DNA of 64,000 bases from Escherichia phage JLBYU22: the sequence record OK272484.1. The stretch is one strand, 5' to 3'. Positions 8,850 to 46,587 of this stretch are shown here, piece after piece. Position 1 is the stretch's first letter, and each line of letters opens with the position of its first letter. The position numbers and the translations under genes were made by a program. Under the pieces are notes generated by a model that did not search any database, was not told the DNA's origin, and was given only the letters and a program-made list of their open reading frames with translations.

Positions 8850-8865
8850 GGGACCGAAAGGTCCC
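8850..8865. terminator. Bidirectional terminator hairpin GGGACC-GAAA-GGTCCC between convergent genes 24 and rnlB
   Basis: Perfect palindromic stem flanked by A-run upstream and T-run downstream. Confidence 0.8.
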
Positions 8866-8871
8866 TTTTAT

Positions 8872-9876
8872 TTAACTTACCAATTCAATCCAAGCCGGAC
8901 GAAGTACATCTTGTACCATTTTAACTAATTCCTTCTTAATCAAGGAAGGATTATCCGCTTGAGTTAAAGTAATACCTTCACGAGAAGTTTCTTCCAAAAT
9001 ATCTTGAACAGTTAGTCCCATCACCTTTCCAAAATCTTTTGGACCAATTTCGCCAATTTTAGAAATAACGTTATTTACCCGATTCAGTGTAACGTAGCAA
9101 GCTAAAATTCCCAGCAATTTGTTATCAGCTTCTGACAGTTCAACTTTAACTTTAATAGGCTTATCAGACTTTTTCTTTTCGCTAAATTTAGAGTTCTTGC
9201 ATTTGATAGCTACGCGATTACCATTAGGCATCCAAGAAGGATAACAAGGTTTCAATACATATCCTTCAGCAGTAAATACTTCGCCTTTTGCTTCAGCATT
9301 CCAAACGCATTTATTTGCATCAACTAATCCAGCGTGGTCTACCGTAAAATTATAATCCTGGACGACAGAATCTAAATCATTTGGCAATTTAATAAGTTCT
9401 TCAAATTTACCACGACCCAAAAGTGGAGCCATTTTAAATTTGAATGTATTACAGAATGATTCCATCATATAATCATCGACATAAGTCACATCACCACTTT
9501 CTGTAGTAACAATAATGTCAAATACATAAAAATCTTTATCACCATAATCGACATTCTTCTGAATGCCAGGTCCAGCGAATTCGCCGAAGACTTGATAAGA
9601 TACAACTGCCGAAGTTTCCATAATATCTTGTACTGCTTTAATGGAATCAGCGTAATTCTTTAGAATAATTTCATACCCAAAGAAATCTTCAGCAGGAAGA
9701 ATCGGTCCAGTACGTTTAGCACAAGTTGCTTTATCGCGTTCAATAATCAGTGAGAAATTTGTGCCATGAATCTTTTCACGAGCTACCCATTCGCCGCCAG
9801 TCAATCCTAAACTGTAAAGTTTTTCAATGAATTTAGAATTGTAATGATTTTCAAGACTGCTATACTTTTTAAACAT
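8872..9876 (-). CDS. rnlB: RNA ligase 2 (Rnl2)
   Basis: 334 aa; KIHGTN nucleotidyltransferase motif I; position after gene 24 as in T4. Confidence 0.9.
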
Positions 9877-10455: not shown

Positions 10456-11874
10456 TTATGGATAGGTATAGATTATACCAGTTTCTAAAGCAGTTTTGTG
10501 AATGATGTATCCATTACGTGATTCTTGGACATCAACTTCTGGATAGTCTTTCATCATCTTCTGAAGAGTGTAACGATGCAGGTAGTATTTACTATCTGGA
10601 TCTTCAGTTTTCCAATCTTTACCTTCTTCGGTCATTTTTTGGATTTCATCCATAACCCACCAACCACACCAGATGTAAGCTGAAGTACGATGTGGAAGAG
10701 GATGAACATAAGGTAATTCACCTTCTGGCTCTGGAGCAACTTTATCAGTTACCTGAACTTGACCTTCCGCCGTAATAGTTTTGCTATCATAATCAGCAGC
10801 AGTAACAGTTGCAGTAACTTCAATAGTTTGACTTCCAATAGATGAGGTATCAACGGTATATACATTAGTTGACCCTTCTACAGGAGAAGAATCTTTCTTC
10901 CATGAATACGCAATTTGCGCTTCTTCTGGAGCATCAGTGACATTAGCAGTAAATGTAGCCGAAGCATCTTGTTGAACGTTAATAGAAGGAGGAGTCAATG
11001 TAACCTGTGGATTCATTGTCTTCTTATTAACTGTTAATGATACTTCATTCGAAGTAACTTCCTTTTCATTGTAATTTTCAGCAGTTACTTGGGCTACGCA
11101 TTTAATTCTTTTTACTCCACTTGTAGTTGGAGTATAGTTAAATGTAGAGTTAGTTTCTCCACCAACTTGTGAATCATCTACATACCATTTATATGTAGCA
11201 GACGCTCCAACAGGTTGAGAAACCAAGGCAGCAGTAAATTGAACTGGGGTTCCAATTACTCCAGCTGAAGGACTATCAGGAGTTACTGCTAAGGTAGTTG
11301 TCTGCGTCTTTTTATTAACAGTCAGTGACACTTCATTGGAAGTAACTTCCTTTGTATCATAATCTGTCGCGGTTACTTGAGCTACACACTTAATTGTTTT
11401 AACTCCGCTTGTGTCAGGAGTGTAATTGAATGTAGCGTCAGTTGCTTCGTCTACAGGAGAACCGTCAACGTGCCATTGATACGTAGCGTTTGCACCTGAT
11501 GGCTGTGAAGCTAAGGCAGCGGTAAATTCAACAGCTGTTCCAATCACTCCAGCAGCAGGACTATCAGGAGTTACTGCCAAGGTAGTTGTCTGTGTCTTAT
11601 TTTGAACTGTGATAGTTGTACTAATTTCAGCTGTTTCAGCTTCAGAATCAGGAACTGGATTTGTTGCAACTACCTTAATAGTCTTTTGTCCAGCAGGACC
11701 TTTTAGTACATAACTAAAAGTTGCAGACGTTTCTTCCTGCGGTGCATCATCAACAGTCCAAGCATAGGTAATAGGTCCATCTCCAGTTTGACCACTGGGT
11801 GTAGCAGTAAACTGCTGAGTCTGATCTATAACTCCAGTAGGTGTTTTAGGAGTTATATCAACTGTAAAAGTCAT
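10456..11874 (-). CDS. hoc: Hoc outer capsid decoration protein, 472 aa with four Ig-like modules plus capsid-binding C-terminus
   Basis: N- and C-terminal regions match T4 Hoc as I recall it; two adjacent ~96-aa modules are ~80 percent identical to each other. Confidence 0.9.
   Translation of the reverse strand: MTFTVDITPKTPTGVIDQTQQFTATPSGQTGDGPITYAWTVDDAPQEETSATFSYVLKGPAGQKTIKVVATNPVPDSEAETAEISTTITVQNKTQTTTLAVTPDSPAAGVIGTAVEFTAALASQPSGANATYQWHVDGSPVDEATDATFNYTPDTSGVKTIKCVAQVTATDYDTKEVTSNEVSLTVNKKTQTTTLAVTPDSPSAGVIGTPVQFTAALVSQPVGASATYKWYVDDSQVGGETNSTFNYTPTTSGVKRIKCVAQVTAENYNEKEVTSNEVSLTVNKKTMNPQVTLTPPSINVQQDASATFTANVTDAPEEAQIAYSWKKDSSPVEGSTNVYTVDTSSIGSQTIEVTATVTAADYDSKTITAEGQVQVTDKVAPEPEGELPYVHPLPHRTSAYIWCGWWVMDEIQKMTEEGKDWKTEDPDSKYYLHRYTLQKMMKDYPEVDVQESRNGYIIHKTALETGIIYTYP
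11014..11589 (-). repeat. Tandem in-frame duplication (2 x 288 bp) encoding two Ig-like modules inside hoc
   Basis: Protein residues 96-191 and 192-287 align colinearly (TTTLAVTPDSP...SLTVNKKT). Confidence 0.85.
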
Positions 11875-22652: not shown

Positions 22653-22656
22653 CAAT

Positions 22657-22674
22657 GGGGACCGAAAGGTCCCC
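22657..22674. terminator. Bidirectional terminator hairpin GGGGACC-GAAA-GGTCCCC between gene 54 and the convergent minus-strand block
   Basis: 7-bp perfect GC stem with T-run downstream. Confidence 0.8.
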
Positions 22675-22680
22675 ATATTT

Positions 22681-22971
22681 TTATTTACGGAATGAAATAA
22701 AAGCAGCAACTGAAGCAACTAAACTGTCTTCAATATAAACTTCAATTTTTACCGGAGCTTCTGACTCAAATTTACCTGTTACTACACCTTGGAAAATGCT
22801 TTCAGTCTGTTCTGGCTTTGAAAAATTTTCAGAAGGAAAAATTCCGAACTTTTTATCTGTTCCAAAAATTTTGATAAATTCATCGTAAACTGCTTCATTA
22901 AAAGCATTATCAGCAGGAATAACGCCTTCAACTACAAGTTCTTGACCTAAAAAGCGCAAAGAAGATTTCAT
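22681..22971 (-). CDS. Hypothetical 96-aa protein (position of T4 alt.-3)
   Basis: GAGGA RBS 7 nt upstream of ATG; preceded by early-promoter-like element. Confidence 0.65.
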   Translation of the reverse strand: MKSSLRFLGQELVVEGVIPADNAFNEAVYDEFIKIFGTDKKFGIFPSENFSKPEQTESIFQGVVTGKFESEAPVKIEVYIEDSLVASVAAFISFRK

Positions 22972-22978
22972 TTTGTGT

Positions 22979-23032
22979 TCCTCATGTTATGTCAGTAAGA
23001 TTACTATAACACAACACGAGGGACTTGTAAAC
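22979..23032 (-). promoter_or_regulatory. Early promoter-like element plus leader (-35 GTTTAC, 17-nt spacer, -10-like TTATAG, leader ending in GAGGA); copy A of a 54-bp repeat
   Basis: 52 of 54 nt identical to 38136-38189; the -35 overlaps the stop codon of the upstream Alt paralog. Confidence 0.6.
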
Positions 23033-25089
23033 TACATTTTGAACTTTTTAGACATTCCGTTAATGTTAACCAAAGAAGCTAAGATTTGAGAAACTTCGTT
23101 TTCCTCTTCTTTTGATTCTTCGACAAGGAATTGATTAAATCCAGTCATTGGACGAACTTCACCAGTTTCCATCAAATGGTCGCCATCATATACTGATTCC
23201 TCTAATTGTTCAGAAGGAGGAACGATTGTACCTTCGATTAGATACTTGTTATAAGCAGTTTCTTTCATAAAGTACGTACTTACTTTATTAATCTTCAGTA
23301 AAATTCCACGTGGTAGAATAACTTCAGCTTCTGATGGAAATCCTGATAAATGACCTGGAACGATAACTTTGATTCGCTCAGCTCCTTTAATTACCATACC
23401 CACGCTAGTTTCGGCATCTTCACTAGCATATGTAGAATGACTACCCATATGCATCAAATCTTCTGCATCAACGGAACCTTCTCCTTCACCAGAAAATACT
23501 GCGCCGGAATCATCTAAGGCCATATAGTTTTTACCATGCTCACCGAAGATATTTGGTTTAAGCGATGTGGATACGAAGTTCTTGAAATAGAACATTTTGT
23601 TTTCAATGTTATGACGCAAAGTTTTAAATGTAACTTCTTGTCCACGGTAAAGTGTAGTTCCTGGAGGAAGAACTGAACCTTTAGCGAATGCAGAATCAAG
23701 CGTCTCAATATGTTTAATAGCTCGTTCCATATATTCTTCGCGGGTAGAATCTGGTTTACCCAAAAGGAACGAGTTCATTTCAACATATGAATCTGCACAA
23801 TAATCTTCAATTACATCAGATTCAGCTTGAGTTAATCCTTTTGGAGTTACTTCGGTGCTCGCGTATTCATATGCCTGAGCGGCAGATTCATTAATCAATT
23901 TATAAATGCCATTCATGACAAATTGAATAATAGCTGTCTTTTCATCTGGTGTAGCTTTAGAACCTTTAACTAAATCATTGATAATTTTCTTAATAACATC
24001 AAAGCTATTAGAAATATTAATGTCAGCAAGATCGCTTAAAATTTTATCAGTTTTATAATCAAAGAATTCTTTATTCTTTAAATATTCTTGAGAACCTTGA
24101 TATGTTATATCGCTCTGCAACTTGATAGATGGATCACGTAAACGCGCATGGGCTAATGCAATATGATTTCGGAAACTTTCTAGTTCATAATCATTAGATT
24201 TAAAACGAGAAGCACTTCTCATACCACCGATAGCTCCTTTGTTAAAGTTTGAACCAATCTGGATAACCCCGGAGTTCATTGGTCCTTCTGCTTTATATAC
24301 CGGAACTTTAGATTCAAACTCTTGATATTTCTTAGCAGCGAAGCTATCACCCTGAAGTGAAGCATCAACAGTAGAATATTGAGCTTGTGCTGCTAATCGA
24401 CGACTAATTTTAGTTTTCTGAATAACAGCTTGATCCGTGCGCTTATCATTTTCTAAGGCAATAGAAGCAGCAACAGCAACAGCTTTAGGAACAGCATTAC
24501 CTGTTTTAACGTCTACATAAACATCACCAACCTTTGATTCAACTTTTGTGAATAACTCAGTTGAAATAGGAGGTACACCTGGAATGTCTTCTAAATTGGC
24601 ATTTTTACGGTAAACCATAATATATGCATACTTTTTATCGTAATCCCAGATTTCCTTTAAAAGAGCATATCGACCTGCTCCTTTAGTACGTACTAAACGG
24701 TCAGCAATAACTTGCATTTGACGAGCTGCGCCATTTGTTTTACTCTTTAGTACGCGGAATAAGCATGCATCAATTTTATACTGTTTCATTGTTTGAAGAG
24801 CAGTATCAAAAACCGCATTAATGACACCAATTGGATTTCCACCCAAGTTTTTAAGTTTAACGAGCGATAGTTTCTCATTGACACCTATCATTACGATATG
24901 CATCATTTTATCGCCTGGCTTAACGTTTTTATTTGTATCACCGCCAGAGGTGTATGTACAAAATCTAAATCCAGGAAGCACACTTTCTTCGCCGGCTTGA
25001 ATAGCAAAAATTTGCGGTATTTTATGCTTAGGATTTAAGTTAACAACCGGCGCCGAAGCGCCGTCAAATAATTCTGTAATAAGTTCCAT
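23032..25089 (-). CDS. Alt-family mono-ADP-ribosyltransferase paralog (685 aa), probably head-packaged
   Basis: N-terminal ~230 aa near-identical to the adjacent Alt; ART motifs YRGQ, FVSTSL and EAEVILPRG; start coupled 3 nt after the alt stop. Confidence 0.8.
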   Translation of the reverse strand: MELITELFDGASAPVVNLNPKHKIPQIFAIQAGEESVLPGFRFCTYTSGGDTNKNVKPGDKMMHIVMIGVNEKLSLVKLKNLGGNPIGVINAVFDTALQTMKQYKIDACLFRVLKSKTNGAARQMQVIADRLVRTKGAGRYALLKEIWDYDKKYAYIMVYRKNANLEDIPGVPPISTELFTKVESKVGDVYVDVKTGNAVPKAVAVAASIALENDKRTDQAVIQKTKISRRLAAQAQYSTVDASLQGDSFAAKKYQEFESKVPVYKAEGPMNSGVIQIGSNFNKGAIGGMRSASRFKSNDYELESFRNHIALAHARLRDPSIKLQSDITYQGSQEYLKNKEFFDYKTDKILSDLADINISNSFDVIKKIINDLVKGSKATPDEKTAIIQFVMNGIYKLINESAAQAYEYASTEVTPKGLTQAESDVIEDYCADSYVEMNSFLLGKPDSTREEYMERAIKHIETLDSAFAKGSVLPPGTTLYRGQEVTFKTLRHNIENKMFYFKNFVSTSLKPNIFGEHGKNYMALDDSGAVFSGEGEGSVDAEDLMHMGSHSTYASEDAETSVGMVIKGAERIKVIVPGHLSGFPSEAEVILPRGILLKINKVSTYFMKETAYNKYLIEGTIVPPSEQLEESVYDGDHLMETGEVRPMTGFNQFLVEESKEEENEVSQILASLVNINGMSKKFKM

Positions 25090-25092
25090 GAT

Positions 25093-27186
25093 TTATCCTT
25101 GAACGAACTTGTAAGGCATGTTTGTAATATCTATGCAAGACGCAATAATTCCAAGAGATGATTCTACTTTTTGTTTAACATTTGATGAAACAAATGATGC
25201 AAAGTCAACTCTGTCTTCTATTTCAATATCACCTGTCATTGCAACTACTTCGCCGGTTTCCATTAAATGGTCTCCATCATAGATTACCGATTCGGTGAGC
25301 TCTTCCGTGGTCATAACTTCAGCTTGAATGAGTTTTGTATTATTAGACGTGGTTCCGTCATTATTAGAAGCATCAGTTATTTTATTAACTTTGACCATCA
25401 ATCCGCGCGGTAGAATAACTTCAGCTTCTGTTGCTATTCCGAGACTTCCTGGATATACAACATTAACTTTATGAGCTCCATCAATTGCCCATCCTATTTG
25501 AACTTTAACGTATTCAGGATTTTCTTTATACGCTCTTATTTCGTTTGGATTAATAGTTATTCCTTCTTCATTTTTATCAACTGTCAATTCATTACGAGCT
25601 TCTGGTTCTAAAAGACCAATACCAGCATGTGTAATTCCAAAACGTCCAAAAATGATAGGAGTTAAAGAAGTAGATACAAAATTTCTGAAATAGAACACTT
25701 TATTTTTAACTAGTGCTTCGTATATAGGAGCAGTCATACTTTGAGCACGATAAACTGTGATGCCTTCCGGTATGCGGTCACCATTTTCAAAAGCTGAATC
25801 TAAGTTATTTATAGCAGATTCAATTTCTTTTTCACTCATTACATCATATCGTTCTGGATTGTAACGACCTAAAAGAAGATTATTGATGTCAGTATATCCT
25901 GAACCGCAATATTCTCTAATGCCACGCTTTTGTGATGGAGTATATTTAGAACCATCGCGGGCAATAGTAATATCAATCATTGGACCAGCACCAATTCCAG
26001 AAAAACTGTAAATCATTCGTTTGAGGAATTTAGTTTTTGCTGCGTTCCAGGAATTTTTAGTTATTTCTTCCCAGACTTCATCTGGTTGTCCTTTACGATT
26101 TTTATTATGATTAGCAAGCCATTTATCTTTATAATCTTCAAAGAATTGATTTACAGCTGCTGCGTATTTCTCTAAACATTTTATTGAAGTAGTTGGTTCA
26201 TTTTTAATCGCATTAAGAATTACATCTTTAATTTTTTCAGAAACTTCATTAACCTCACTTTTTGAAAAGAATTTATAGTCATAATGAAGTTCATCTGCAG
26301 TTCCTTCGGCAATGATTTTTGCTGCTTTAGTTTTAGAAGCTAATGAATTAATTCCAAGCTTCATTTCTTCTGCTTCGGGAATTAAAGGAGCCGTAGCAGG
26401 TTTATTGAAATTAGCTGCGGTAGATTCATACTTTTGGAATAATTCACTTTCAAATCTAGAAGATTCTAATGATTGACTTTGTGCAATTGCTCTACGGGAA
26501 ATTTTAACTTTAACGATTACAGCTTGGTCAGAACGTTTATCGTTTTCTTGCGCAATAGATGCAGCAATTGCCTCATTTTTAGTTACTTGAGCTCCAGTAT
26601 CTTTATTGATATAAACATCACCGACCTTTGATTCAACTTTAGTAAAGAGCTCGGTACTAATTTCCGGAACTCCTGGAATGTCTTCTAGTGATACATTTTT
26701 GCGATGTATAAGAATATATGCATACTTTTTATCGTAATCCCAGAGTTCCTTAAGAAGGACGTATCTACCACCTGAACGACTACGGATAAGTCTATCAGCA
26801 ATAACTTGAATTTGTCGAGCTTGACCAGCGGTTTTAGACTTAAGAATACGGAGCATACAGGCATCAATTTTATACTGACGCATAGTTTGCATTGCAACAG
26901 TAAAAACTGAATTGATATAATTAATTGGGCTTGGACCAAGACCTTTTAATTTAGCAATTGAACCTTTAGCAGTTAATGTAAAAGGAACAATATGCATCAT
27001 TTTATCGCCCATCTTTAAATCGCGATTAGTATCACCTCCAGATGTATAGGTGCATAAACGAAAGCCTGGCTGTTCAATTGCATCATCAACGTGAACTGAA
27101 AAAATTTGCGGTATTTTCTTCTTTGGATTTAAGTTTGTAATCGGAAGAGTAGTATCTTCGTCAAATAATTCTGTAATAAGTTCCAT
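25093..27186 (-). CDS. alt: Alt ADP-ribosyltransferase (head protein that modifies host RNA polymerase in T4)
   Basis: About 697 aa (track has an extra Met at 27189); ART motifs YRAQ, FVSTSL and EAEVILPRG; position adjacent to gene 30 as in T4. Confidence 0.85.
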   Translation of the reverse strand: MELITELFDEDTTLPITNLNPKKKIPQIFSVHVDDAIEQPGFRLCTYTSGGDTNRDLKMGDKMMHIVPFTLTAKGSIAKLKGLGPSPINYINSVFTVAMQTMRQYKIDACMLRILKSKTAGQARQIQVIADRLIRSRSGGRYVLLKELWDYDKKYAYILIHRKNVSLEDIPGVPEISTELFTKVESKVGDVYINKDTGAQVTKNEAIAASIAQENDKRSDQAVIVKVKISRRAIAQSQSLESSRFESELFQKYESTAANFNKPATAPLIPEAEEMKLGINSLASKTKAAKIIAEGTADELHYDYKFFSKSEVNEVSEKIKDVILNAIKNEPTTSIKCLEKYAAAVNQFFEDYKDKWLANHNKNRKGQPDEVWEEITKNSWNAAKTKFLKRMIYSFSGIGAGPMIDITIARDGSKYTPSQKRGIREYCGSGYTDINNLLLGRYNPERYDVMSEKEIESAINNLDSAFENGDRIPEGITVYRAQSMTAPIYEALVKNKVFYFRNFVSTSLTPIIFGRFGITHAGIGLLEPEARNELTVDKNEEGITINPNEIRAYKENPEYVKVQIGWAIDGAHKVNVVYPGSLGIATEAEVILPRGLMVKVNKITDASNNDGTTSNNTKLIQAEVMTTEELTESVIYDGDHLMETGEVVAMTGDIEIEDRVDFASFVSSNVKQKVESSLGIIASCIDITNMPYKFVQG

Positions 27187-27209
27187 CATAGCCTCTCTAG
27201 TGTTTATTC

Positions 27210-27427: not shown

Positions 27428-28887
27428 AGACCAGTTACCTCATGAAAATCACCAAATACATCCTCGAATGTATTAGCTTTAGTTTTATCTTCACGTAAAC
27501 GAATCGCAATCGGAAGAAATAATTTAACGTAATCAGTGCGGCCATCAGATTTTAACCAACCGTTGCATTCGCACTCTAGAATTTTTCCAATATAATAATT
27601 TTGGTTTTCCATAATGCGAGTACGGTCAAGCTCATGTGATTTTACGCCGGCTTTATCTTTTAAGCCTGAACCAGCATTTACTTTAATTTTTCCACACTCT
27701 GACTCAAGAATAAATCCACCTGCTTTAGTAGGGTCTTTACGGTGAGGATAAATTCCTACAATTTTTAAATCAACATCAATTACTTCTTTAAATTTATAGA
27801 GATTTTTTGAACGGGCATTTTCCCATAACCCATCAACGTTTTTGAGAATAATACCTTCAAGACCTTGATCAATATACTTTTTGTAAATTACCTTAGCTTC
27901 ATCTAGGTTATTTACTACCTGGTTTTCAATTAAAATTACTTTATCATAGCCTGATGTCATTTGTTCTAGTTTAGAAAAACGTACATCATACTTTAAACGA
28001 AATGCAGGAAGACCATATATTTCTACTAATGGAACATAATCCCAGACCTGAAACTTCATGCATTGTGCTTCTTTTTCGGAAATGGTTCCCTTTAAAGATT
28101 TATTAGCGATTCCATTAGAAGCAGTACGTGATTCAGCTACTTCGGCGAATTCTTTAGCTTTACTAATTTCAGGATAAGCATTAAAAAGAAAATCTAGGCC
28201 TTCTGGCTCCTTTTTAACTTGCTCATGGTATACCAATTCGCCATCAATTAACACACCTTCTGGATGAATCTGGCGGGCTTCAGCGGTCATTTTAATTAAC
28301 TCTTCCTTAAGAAGATCTAATCCTAGATATTCATTACCAGCTCGTGATAAAAGACGAACATCATCTAATTCATCACCTCTGACTTCAGCAAAGCACCGAG
28401 CTCCATCAGCTTTTAACTGGGCAAAAGCTGGAAATTTGATATTCTTATTAATGCCTTTTTCATCATAAGAACTTGCAAGCATTTGAGGTTGTTCAGGAAT
28501 TAAACCTGGCCAAACTTTGTTTGCAATAGATACTGAAGCACCGCATTCAAGGTCTCGCATCATCACTCGACGCAAAACTTCAACATCATCTTTTTTACCA
28601 TCGGTGATATATCCAATTAATTCCTCAATTGCCGCATTTCCAGTCAATTTCCGAGTAGCTAACGTGAATTCAATGAAGTCAAGCATATCGGTAAGAGTCA
28701 ACATTCCAAAACTCTGGGTAGCAATACCCGGTTTAGGCCATTTCTTGATATAATACTGTAACCCACGAGAATAAGTCAGACGATATACTCGTTTAAGCAA
28801 TTCATTATCTTTGTTCTTTTCAAGAATTGCTTGCTTCTGCTTAGTTGAACCAATAGATGCTATTTCGTTCAGAATTTTAAGAATCAT
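27424..28887 (-). CDS. 30: ATP-dependent DNA ligase gp30
   Basis: 487 aa; KADGAR adenylation motif. Confidence 0.97.
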   Translation of the reverse strand: MILKILNEIASIGSTKQKQAILEKNKDNELLKRVYRLTYSRGLQYYIKKWPKPGIATQSFGMLTLTDMLDFIEFTLATRKLTGNAAIEELIGYITDGKKDDVEVLRRVMMRDLECGASVSIANKVWPGLIPEQPQMLASSYDEKGINKNIKFPAFAQLKADGARCFAEVRGDELDDVRLLSRAGNEYLGLDLLKEELIKMTAEARQIHPEGVLIDGELVYHEQVKKEPEGLDFLFNAYPEISKAKEFAEVAESRTASNGIANKSLKGTISEKEAQCMKFQVWDYVPLVEIYGLPAFRLKYDVRFSKLEQMTSGYDKVILIENQVVNNLDEAKVIYKKYIDQGLEGIILKNVDGLWENARSKNLYKFKEVIDVDLKIVGIYPHRKDPTKAGGFILESECGKIKVNAGSGLKDKAGVKSHELDRTRIMENQNYYIGKILECECNGWLKSDGRTDYVKLFLPIAIRLREDKTKANTFEDVFGDFHEVTGL

Positions 28888-31531: not shown

Positions 31532-31599
31532 TTTTATTCTCCGAGATGTTTAATTGCGGTACAGGTATATAATATCATATCCTGTACCAAAGTAAACAA

Positions 31600-31949: not shown

Positions 31950-31989
31950 GTGTAAGATAATACTATCACAAAGGAACCATACTGTAAAC
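31950..31989 (-). promoter_or_regulatory. Early promoter-like element (-35 GTTTAC at complement 31984-31989)
   Basis: GTTTAC, 17-18 nt spacer, TAGTAT, then AAGGAG and ATG. Confidence 0.5.
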
Positions 31990-34823: not shown

Positions 34824-34885
34824 TTTGTTTTCCTCATTTGTTTTGGTAGAGCTATAATATCACAACTCTACCAAAAAGTAAACTA

Positions 34886-37284: not shown

Positions 37285-37634
37285 TTAGAAAGGTCCTGGA
37301 TGTCTTCTGCGAACTTGTTGAAGGAGTTGTTGATTTGTTTTTCAACCAATCCTGGCTTATGAGCCACCACATCCGCCTTCTTTGCGTCTTTGCGCAGCTT
37401 TTCATTTTCACGCTCAATAACAGCAATTGCCTCACGATTTTTATTATTCATCGCATCAATATAATTATACTGAATTCGCAAATTATTTAATGCTAAGGCG
37501 TTTTCATTGGCCGTTTTTGTAATTTCTACAACAGACGTTTCTAATCTTTCAATTTTATTTTTTAAAATTAAAGAAGTTCCGCCCAATGCAATTACAATTA
37601 ATAGCAAACCTGCTGTCGTATTACTTAATTGCAT
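37281..37634 (-). CDS. Type II membrane protein with coiled coil, i-spanin candidate
   Basis: N-terminal TM helix (TAGLLLIVIALGGTSLIL) followed by helical Glu/Lys-rich domain. Confidence 0.7.
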   Translation of the reverse strand: MQLSNTTAGLLLIVIALGGTSLILKNKIERLETSVVEITKTANENALALNNLRIQYNYIDAMNNKNREAIAVIERENEKLRKDAKKADVVAHKPGLVEKQINNSFNKFAEDIQDLSK

Positions 37635-38128
37635 AAAGTTTTAATAACCTCTATAATATCGTCTTGAGAAAGACCGTTAATTAAAATATGATGTTCAGCT
37701 GGAGATTTAGAAATTTTAAAGCATGCCTCAACATCTTCTGCCATATCCGATGCACTACGATTTGGATTACTAATACCAAGGCGGTGTTTTCCCGTCAAAG
37801 GATTAACGATGATATAGCATTTGCAGCTATTGATATGAACATTGGGTTGAGTCTGATTAATGAACACTTCACAATCATACTTAGCGAGTTGATTTTCTAA
37901 AAAGACTTTCATCTCTTCAACCGCATCAGGAAGCATATCACGGGCTTGCTCAAGACGACGATTTCGATATTCTTTAATGGTCGTTTTCCGCTTGACTTGC
38001 TTAGCTAAATCTTTCTTAAGATCGGTGATATATCCAACTCGACGATTTCCTTTGAATACAGAAATCCCATCTGTAGTATCACCGTATGCTTCAACGACCA
38101 TTTCAGTAGTAATAAGTTGTAAATCCAT
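37625..38128 (-). CDS. alc: Alc-like protein (transcription termination on cytosine-containing DNA)
   Basis: 167 aa from second Met (track has 168); sits between the spanins and rnlA as alc does in T4; assigned by size and synteny. Confidence 0.65.
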   Translation of the reverse strand: MDLQLITTEMVVEAYGDTTDGISVFKGNRRVGYITDLKKDLAKQVKRKTTIKEYRNRRLEQARDMLPDAVEEMKVFLENQLAKYDCEVFINQTQPNVHINSCKCYIIVNPLTGKHRLGISNPNRSASDMAEDVEACFKISKSPAEHHILINGLSQDDIIEVIKTLCN

Positions 38129-38135
38129 CATAAAG

Positions 38136-38189
38136 TCCTCATGTTATGTCAGTAAGACTACTGTAACACAACACGAGGGACTTGTAAAC
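38136..38189 (-). promoter_or_regulatory. Early promoter-like element plus leader; copy B of the 54-bp repeat
   Basis: 52 of 54 nt identical to 22979-23032; -35 GTTTAC at complement 38184-38189; GAGGA RBS feeds the alc start. Confidence 0.6.
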
Positions 38190-38192
38190 AGC

Positions 38193-39780
<1,588 letters not shown>

Positions 39781-46544: not shown

Positions 46545-46587
46545 AGTTGATAGGGTAATAGTATCACACTACTACCCTGATGTAAAC
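46545..46587 (-). promoter_or_regulatory. Early promoter-like element (-35 GTTTAC at complement 46582-46587)
   Basis: GTTTAC, 17-nt spacer ending TGTG, then ATACTAT. Confidence 0.5.

Follow-up and report, generated by a model that had tools for sequence, protein, structure and literature searches.

The Repeated Cassette and Its Surroundings

The window analyzed here is a stretch of 64,000 nucleotides of Escherichia phage JLBYU22 (sequence record OK272484.1), which belongs to Tequatrovirus and is 97.9% identical over 17.5 kb to phage TH09. Two intergenic junctions on its minus strand carry nearly the same 54 bp, and the genes around both were identified from their open reading frames together with the RB18 and T4 annotations. 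Copy B (38136–38189) is situated between rnlA, the gene of RNA ligase 1 (38193–39317, same strand as alc, stop at 38193), and alc, which encodes an inhibitor of host transcription (37625–38131; the T4 annotation starts at the second ATG, 38128); it starts 3 nt past the rnlA TAA and ends 4 nt ahead of the alc ATG. Alc attacks transcription on cytosine DNA. Copy A (22979–23032) is situated between the stop of alt.-2 (23032–25089, minus strand), a full-length Alt paralog of 685 aa, and the start of alt.-3 (22681–22971, minus strand; 96 aa); its first position is the final base of the alt.-2 TAG, and GAGGA closes it 7 nt before the alt.-3 ATG. The upstream genes, alt.-2 for copy A and rnlA for copy B, are the candidate sources of read-through RNA. 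The alt.-3 gene is non-essential, and C-terminal extensions of its product escape or defeat the CmdTAC defence (PMC11618068), which gives some biological context for the copied cassette and not a demonstrated link to it.

The earlier note had described two near-identical copies in unrelated surroundings, and this description holds: 52 of 54 positions are identical in pairwise comparison, the minus-strand module reads GTTTACAAGTCCCTCGTGTTGTGTTA(T/C)AGTA(A/G)TCTTACTGACATAACATGAGGA, and the likeness breaks off sharply at either end, the flanks being unrelated. Copy A differs from copy B by T/C at module position 27, within the −10 element, and by A/G at position 32, in the loop of the hairpin described below. 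A repeat search of the window returned the pair (54 nt, 96% identity, direct orientation, spacing of 15,157 bp) as its top-ranking non-coding dispersed repeat. A search with a degenerate pattern and up to 3 mismatches found A and B as the sole sites in the window, with 0 matches expected from 100 shuffles under the same search. The block enclosed by the copies had been termed ligase-to-spanin, which names it incompletely, as it extends from alt.-2 through alc.

Some further similarities concern the neighbouring genes. The full-length alt.-2 (23032–25089) and alt (about 25093–27189) share 72–77% DNA identity, and T4 retains only the fragments alt.-1 and alt.-2; over their initial 31 nt (25062–25092 and 27159–27189) they are 97% identical to each other, far above the remainder, which may reflect local conversion or selection on the start region. 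A 29-nt stretch in alc (38009–38037) is 90% identical to 28588–28616, which the coordinate offset to RB18 places inside the DNA ligase gene 30; this could be chance or a common peptide motif.

Promoter Elements

Each copy contains the elements of an early promoter, in line with the former description of the repeat as a promoter-plus-leader module. In copy A the −35 hexamer TTTACA (23026–23031), preceded by the G at 23032 that is also the last base of the alt.-2 TAG stop, is separated by 17 nt from the −10 hexamer TATAGT (23003–23008); in copy B TTTACA (38183–38188) is separated by the same distance from TACAGT (38160–38165), and at both the −10 is extended by an upstream TG. Judged on sequence only, the copies are of the T4/PST type TTTACW-N17-TAYWAT, with promoter scores of 10 of 12 (A) and 9 of 12 (B). 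The 25–40 nt upstream of the −35s are AT-rich, TCTAAAAAGTTCAAAATGTA and GAAAAATTATAAAAAATTTATCC..., and belong to the 3′ ends of the upstream genes. Start sites were deduced from the usual 7-nt spacing past the −10 and are predicted at about 22996 and about 38153, i.e., about position 37 of the module, in which the −10 occupies positions 25–30 and the 5′ arm of the hairpin positions 12–25. Promoter activity of both copies is likewise a prediction; the searchable literature yielded no mapped T4 starts at alc or alt.-3 and no translation or structure-probing data for them.

The similarity of the two copies could in principle reflect chance or a common promoter consensus, since GTTTAC, TG-TAnnnT and the A-rich GAGGA leader are shared by all T4 early promoters. 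If this were the case, the other early promoters should carry the same 54 bp. However, the window contains seven other GTTTAC-type early cassettes, and these have only 16–29 of 54 positions in common with the module (16–36 of 54 among themselves), being much more diverged, as the earlier note had observed. Consensus conservation thus does not account for the repeat, and together with the zero matches expected in shuffles this leaves chance or consensus a practically negligible probability.

A Predicted Hairpin that Joins the Promoter Spacer to the Shine-Dalgarno Sequence

The main structural feature of the module, missed in the earlier reading, is a hairpin with the Shine-Dalgarno sequence (SD) in its 3′ arm. 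Fold prediction shows an extended, imperfect inverted repeat across the module, in which RNA positions 12–25 (CCUCGUGUUGUGUU) pair with positions 40–53 (GACAUAACAUGAGG) and a short apical helix is placed on top. The 5′ arm is made of the promoter spacer and the start of the −10, and the 3′ arm is made of the leader including the SD. In copy A the 5′, anti-SD arm CCTCGTGTTGTGTT (23008–23021, minus strand) would be missing from transcripts that begin at the predicted start of the cassette itself, and the 3′ arm GACATAACATGAGG (22980–22993, minus strand) includes the SD GAGG (22980–22983), 8 nt before the alt.-3 ATG; the two arms are complementary over 14 nt, with GAGG paired to CCUC inside the 14-bp run. 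In copy B the full hairpin predicted in read-through RNA extends over 38133–38183 (minus strand) with the SD GAGG at 38137–38140, and its outer helix AAGUCC/GGACUU reaches 3 nt past the end of the repeat. The stem in Tequatrovirus is about 20–22 bp long with small internal loops. Predicted energies are −23 kcal/mol for copy A (z −4.5) and −25.7 to −28.6 kcal/mol for copy B (z −4.9), while RNA that begins just past the −10 (module position 30–31) is essentially unstructured (−2.2 and −5.0 kcal/mol, z about 0). Several G.U pairs fall on the sense strand, which points to a structure of RNA rather than of DNA.

The cassette does not have the composition of an intrinsic terminator, i.e., a GC-rich stem followed by a T-run. 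The terminator scan found no terminator-like site (stem with T-run) at either copy, where the stems are followed by the tails ACACAAAATG and CTTTATGATG, and none between rnlA and alc; in ten other genera a T-run after the stem at the rnlA–alc junction is absent as well. No Rfam family matched at gathering score anywhere in the window (1–64000), hence the phage seems to be without the group I introns that T4 has in this region (td, nrdB).

The rnlA–alc Junction in Other Genera

The pairing of promoter spacer and SD is found at the rnlA–alc junction well beyond Tequatrovirus. Ten genera (Tequatro-, Dhaka-, Jiaoda-, Gelderland-, Karam-, Moon-, Roskilde-, Braga-, Winkler- and Kanagawavirus) have, right after TTTACA, a spacer stretch of 9–15 nt that is complementary to the SD region without interruption, the pairing ending 3–8 nt upstream of the ATG. 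The spacer and SD arms are TCTCCTCAT and ATGAGGAGA in Dhakavirus QL01, ATCCTCATCAG and CTGATGAGGAT in Jiaodavirus KpV477, and ATCTCCGTTTAGTT and AACTAAACGGAGAT in Gelderlandvirus NP4; Karamvirus AS6, Moonvirus Merlin, Roskildevirus Cronus, Bragavirus phiP4-3, Winklervirus LC53 and Kanagawavirus CIP9 have an alike design built of differing sequences. In the nine genera tested by shuffling, p ranged per genus from <0.0002 to 0.044, and in Kanagawavirus the design was seen in the fold only. Gualtarvirus shows a variant, in which the −10 pairs with the SD, and brings the total to 11 genera.

Since the two arms are out of register between genera, MAFFT with RNAalifold gave no consensus structure on nine raw alc leaders, and an arm alignment anchored at the −35, along with the per-sequence shuffle tests, was used in its place. 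Of the cells in this alignment, which comprises eight non-T4 genera and seven distinct rows, 97% are paired, and both partners have changed in 8 of the 10 pairs. The covariation score was reached by none of 500 shuffles, and the signal vanished when the partner was slid by 1–3 columns; these counts lean towards structure, because it was pairing that fixed the register of the 3′ arm, each sequence being allowed one free shift.

The anti-SD design is absent at alc in Mosigvirus and Gaprivervirus, so it must be dispensable, and it is absent in the relatives from Aeromonas, Cronobacter and Acinetobacter that were examined. In Gaprivervirus the junction has a different arrangement with an extra small ORF; in phage VR25 (NC_028925.1, 19752–19985) this ORF of 77 aa between rnlA and alc is labelled "inhibitor of host transcription." Another annotation at this junction, the alc CDS of Shigella phage Shf125875 (NC_025437.1, 18941–19004), begins at the rnlA stop and crosses the promoter; this start appears to be mis-called, with the homologous Met 21 codons downstream.

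Distribution and Variation within Tequatrovirus

Both copies are also present in T4, where they are identical to each other at 53 of 54 positions, and in RB18. Blastn with the consensus 54-mer and a word of 11, with copies counted down to E = 0.01, found the module in 499 phage records at a total of 997 places, or about two in each genome, all of them full length and at least 90% identical; none of these places lies outside the T4 group (Tequatrovirus-like phages). Among the matches listed, the two places per record are alt.-3 and alc. The 54-mer may therefore be used as a two-copy signature of Tequatrovirus. A megablast search with copy A had suggested that many genomes contain a single copy, which is an artefact of its 28-nt word, as two mismatches leave no 28-mer and the second copy is missed; the word-11 search gives about two copies.

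Sequence variants of the module were collected from isolates and from IMG/VR and metagenomes by pattern scans and a protein-based locus search, which yielded few T4-like contigs. In the 27 copies obtained the module occurs at these two loci only, and the consensus, or commonest, 54-mer is the same at both. The numbers of stem variants in this set are small: at alc pairing was kept in 3 of 3, and at alt.-3 it was kept 5 times and broken 4 times, one of the breaking variants improving the −10 to TATAAT. Selection on the hairpin at its new site may thus be weak or none, and is doubtful. Variants are mostly locus-specific, with TACAGT at alc only and an AATC loop mostly at alt.-3. Ongoing concerted evolution of the two copies within Tequatrovirus was considered and is ruled out by this largely locus-specific variation.

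Origin of the alt.-3 Copy

The direction of copying is indicated by the outgroups. Six of these genera (Dhaka-, Jiaoda-, Gelderland-, Karam-, Gapriver- and Mosigvirus) have a different cassette between alt and alt.-3, with a 4–6-bp stem-loop within the spacer and an AAGGA-like loop (CCACAAGGATGTGG, TCACAAGGACGTGA, GCACAAGGAAGTGC and others), and in none of the six does this stem-loop pair to the SD. As the hairpin-promoter is present at alc in other genera and the alt.-3 cassette of the outgroups is of another type, the location of copy B is ancestral and the Tequatrovirus copy at alt.-3 is derived. At the level of sequence comparison it is shown that, on the stem lineage of Tequatrovirus, the cassette of alc took the place of that of alt.-3, and the modular promoter shuffling suspected in the earlier note is in this way corroborated. 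The short spacer stem of the outgroup alt.-3 cassettes itself covaries (CCACA/TGTGG, TCAC/GTGA, GCAC/GTGC, ACATCC/GGATGT), and its AAGGA-like loop resembles an SD.

The old-type alt.-3 cassettes begin with TAGTTTACAA and end with AACATGAGGA, like the alc cassette, which delimits the replaced interior to about 36 bp bounded by common motifs of 8–10 bp. The exchange junctions would accordingly be placed, as far as the aligned cassettes indicate, in GTTTACAA at the −35 and in AACATGAGGA at the SD. The flanking ORFs are conserved and the cassette interior alone is replaced. The most plausible course is a non-reciprocal exchange in which the interior of the alt.-3 cassette was overwritten with that of the alc cassette, although the recombination mechanism is deduced from the products. 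Ectopic gene conversion between dispersed short repeats offers a close parallel, being likewise non-reciprocal, with a tract of about 36 bp, common motifs of 8–10 bp and intact flanks; unlike continuing gene conversion, the present case appears as one ancient event that took place on the Tequatrovirus stem, and there is no sign of continuing homogenization.

Mosigvirus has lost the anti-SD design at alc and carries there a spacer stem-loop cassette that by eye is about 78% like its own alt.-3 cassette. A copy from the Mosigvirus alt.-3 was considered as its source and is suggestive at most, since the spacer stem-loop type with an AAGGA loop is also located upstream of rnlA in this genus, which makes the donor ambiguous.

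A Putative Translational Gate

Taken together, these observations are best explained by a self-contained early cassette of the T4 group, in which an early promoter is embedded in an SD-masking hairpin and which is native to alc and was copied to alt.-3; we assign this reading a probability of roughly 60%. The hairpin probably allows translation of the downstream gene only from the promoter of the cassette itself, as far as can be deduced from its layout. RNA that reads through from rnlA or alt.-2 would contain both arms, fold and mask the SD; in T4 such RNA entering alc would derive from mapped middle promoters further upstream, e.g., PnrdB and PI-TevIII. RNA initiated at the cassette's promoter would start about 7 nt past the −10, in the 3′ half of the hairpin, so that it would not have the 5′ arm and could be translated. 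Translation of the downstream gene would in this manner be tied to the brief immediate-early activity of the cassette's promoter and not to later read-through, and the synthesis of Alc would be limited to an immediate-early burst. In its new position the gate would keep alt.-3 from being translated off read-through RNA of alt/alt.-2. A more far-reaching proposal, which is tentative and stands a little short of even odds, is that in at least 11 T4-related genera alc is under a temporal translational gate that was not described before, with Alc made from immediate-early transcripts only and never from later read-through RNA, and that the whole gate was moved to alt.-3 in the T4 genus.

The proposed mechanism has well-characterized counterparts. 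For the T4 genes e, soc, 49 and I-TevI, upstream-initiated RNA folds into a helix that encloses the SD, and RNA from an internal promoter has no 5′ strand of the helix and is translated; these promoters are late promoters (TATAAATA), which delays expression to late infection (PMC3014915). The cassette resembles this group in having the SD within a helix of the upstream RNA and, in the predicted model, an own transcript without the 5′ strand. In contrast, its promoter is of the early sigma-70 type, and translation would be confined to the first minutes. As the promoter is not a late one, the mechanism is alike and the cassette stands outside the e/soc/49/I-TevI late-gene set; alc is not named among the genes with masked ribosome binding sites in the review of these systems (PMC3014915).

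The second relevant group are the promoter-early stem-loop (PeSL) cassettes of T4-type phages (Arbiol et al., 2010, PMC2839356; Comeau et al., 2014, PMC4122927). In these papers a PeSL is composed of a stop codon, an AT-rich stretch, a sigma-70-like promoter, a stem-loop overlapping the −10, and then SD and ATG, and the exchange of PeSLs is proposed to drive modular evolution (PMC2839356; PMC4122927). Both copies share the intergenic placement from stop to ATG, the early promoter, the AT-rich upstream stretch and a stable stem-loop; a strong sigma-70-like early promoter (T4/PST TTTACW-N17-TAYWAT) is part of the PeSL description, and "overlapping the -10 box" is one of the positions given there for the stem-loop. 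Replacement between related genomes, which is characteristic of PeSLs, is found as well, in that the alt.-3 cassette type differs between Tequatrovirus and the six outgroups and the alc cassette of Mosigvirus is of another kind, with the flanking ORFs conserved. There are also differences: the published PeSLs have a loose consensus, gain, loss or swap of flanking ORFs and a stem-loop read as a terminator, whereas the present cassettes are 15 kb apart and 96–100% identical, their flanking genes are unchanged, there is no T-run, and the 3′ arm coincides with the SD. By analogy with both groups, the element is best regarded as an early-promoter cassette of the PeSL class that is functionally nearest to the promoter-in-hairpin ribosome binding site masks of T4 late genes.

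Alternative Explanations

The main alternative is the interpretation first proposed for PeSLs, i.e., that the stem-loop is a terminator or attenuator insulating the downstream gene and that the cassette is mainly a recombination site for gene shuffling. The module fits the published PeSL description, one RB49 PeSL stem-loop is reported to have lowered lacZ expression as a strong terminator does, and mini-circles to have arisen by recombination of nearby PeSLs (PMC2839356; PMC4122927); the cassette swap at alt.-3 is in itself an exchange of the PeSL type. However, a T-run is present neither at the two copies nor in the ten other genera, the terminator scan was negative, and the trait that is conserved is the position of the SD within the 3′ arm, ending 3–8 nt before the ATG, a placement that a terminator does not need. 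The absence of a T-run and the consistent placement of the SD in the 3′ arm favour translational masking over termination, and with the flanking genes unchanged no gene was shuffled; the terminator and shuffling interpretation is considered unlikely. Still less probable is that the hairpin is an RNA-processing site, at which RNase III or a similar enzyme cuts the alc or alt.-3 mRNA from the upstream message. The Tequatrovirus stem of about 20–22 bp with its small internal loops is in the range of substrates, but in the other genera the helix has just 9–15 bp, which is too short for RNase III, and is yet kept by covariation; moreover, none of the Rfam families matches.

The direct repeats had also been put forward as sites at which the enclosed 15-kb block could be deleted or duplicated, and one may ask if this is what chiefly matters about them. 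A length of 54 bp is about the minimum for efficient homologous recombination in T4. Recombination is reported for PeSL pairs separated by a few hundred bp (PMC2839356). The phage records argue against such a role, as the 997 places in 499 records are, among the matches listed, two per record at alt.-3 and alc, with no junction-type variant, and the largely locus-specific variants give no sign of ongoing exchange. Deletion would be lethal, with the genes 30 and 31, essential by T4 genetics, inside the interval, and a 15-kb duplication exceeds the headful capacity, or the available terminal redundancy. Deletion or duplication as the principal role of the repeats is therefore judged very improbable, and the SD-masking promoter cassette copied from alc to alt.-3 is retained as the preferred reading.

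Significance of the Cassette

T4 serves as a reference for gene regulation, with sequences that have been public for decades. Nevertheless, no earlier mention of the alc hairpin was found in the openly accessible literature, and as far as this literature shows three points are new: the genus-wide identity of the alc and alt.-3 cassettes in two copies, the polarity of copying from alc to alt.-3, and the deep conservation, with covariation, of an anti-SD in the alc promoter spacer. If the gate works, it extends the logic of a promoter inside a hairpin from late to immediate-early genes and helps to explain how the synthesis of an early protein is halted despite continued transcription from upstream of its gene. 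Promoter and gate would then form a portable unit that takes a timing programme from gene to gene, and the alt.-3 copy would show, in a clean and dated case, how a regulatory cassette is copied to a second locus and retains its timing logic. The exchange supports and sharpens the PeSL model of modular evolution, in that the cassette itself is replaceable via its common ends of 8–10 bp while the genes remain untouched. For genome engineering some caution is advisable, because a 54-bp direct repeat flanks a 15-kb essential block.

Other Cassettes and Repeats in the Window

Several other early cassettes of the window contain inverted repeats. Upstream of gene 30.8 (31960–31988, minus strand) the spacer TTCCTTTGT is complementary to the cassette's own SD ACAAAGGAG, whose end lies 6 nt from the ATG (p about 0.03 by shuffling); the gating design may be present at this gene, too. 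The early cassettes at 31569–31596, 34854–34882 and 46558–46586 (all minus strand), upstream of 30.7, cd.2 and a third gene, respectively, have 9–12-bp inverted repeats that straddle the −10 and stop short of the SD, and are PeSL-like types with a "stem-loop overlapping −10."

The intergenic region between denA and rnlA (39318–39369, minus strand) has a spacer stem-loop CCACATGGAGTGTGG followed by TACTAT, with the MotA-box-like TGCTT before it in place of GTTTACA; the corresponding Mosigvirus junction reads GTTTACATACCACAAGGATTGTGGTACAAT. This may be a swap of an early and a middle promoter on the same stem-loop scaffold, and the published list of mapped T4 middle promoters does not contain the site.

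Between the convergent genes alt.-3 and 54, at 22655–22676, lies a hairpin GGGACCGAAAGGTCCC that has T-runs and resembles a bidirectional terminator, and an 81% copy of it is found at 8850–8880, 13.8 kb away. At 11018–11593 there is a tandem pair of 288-nt units with 76% identity.
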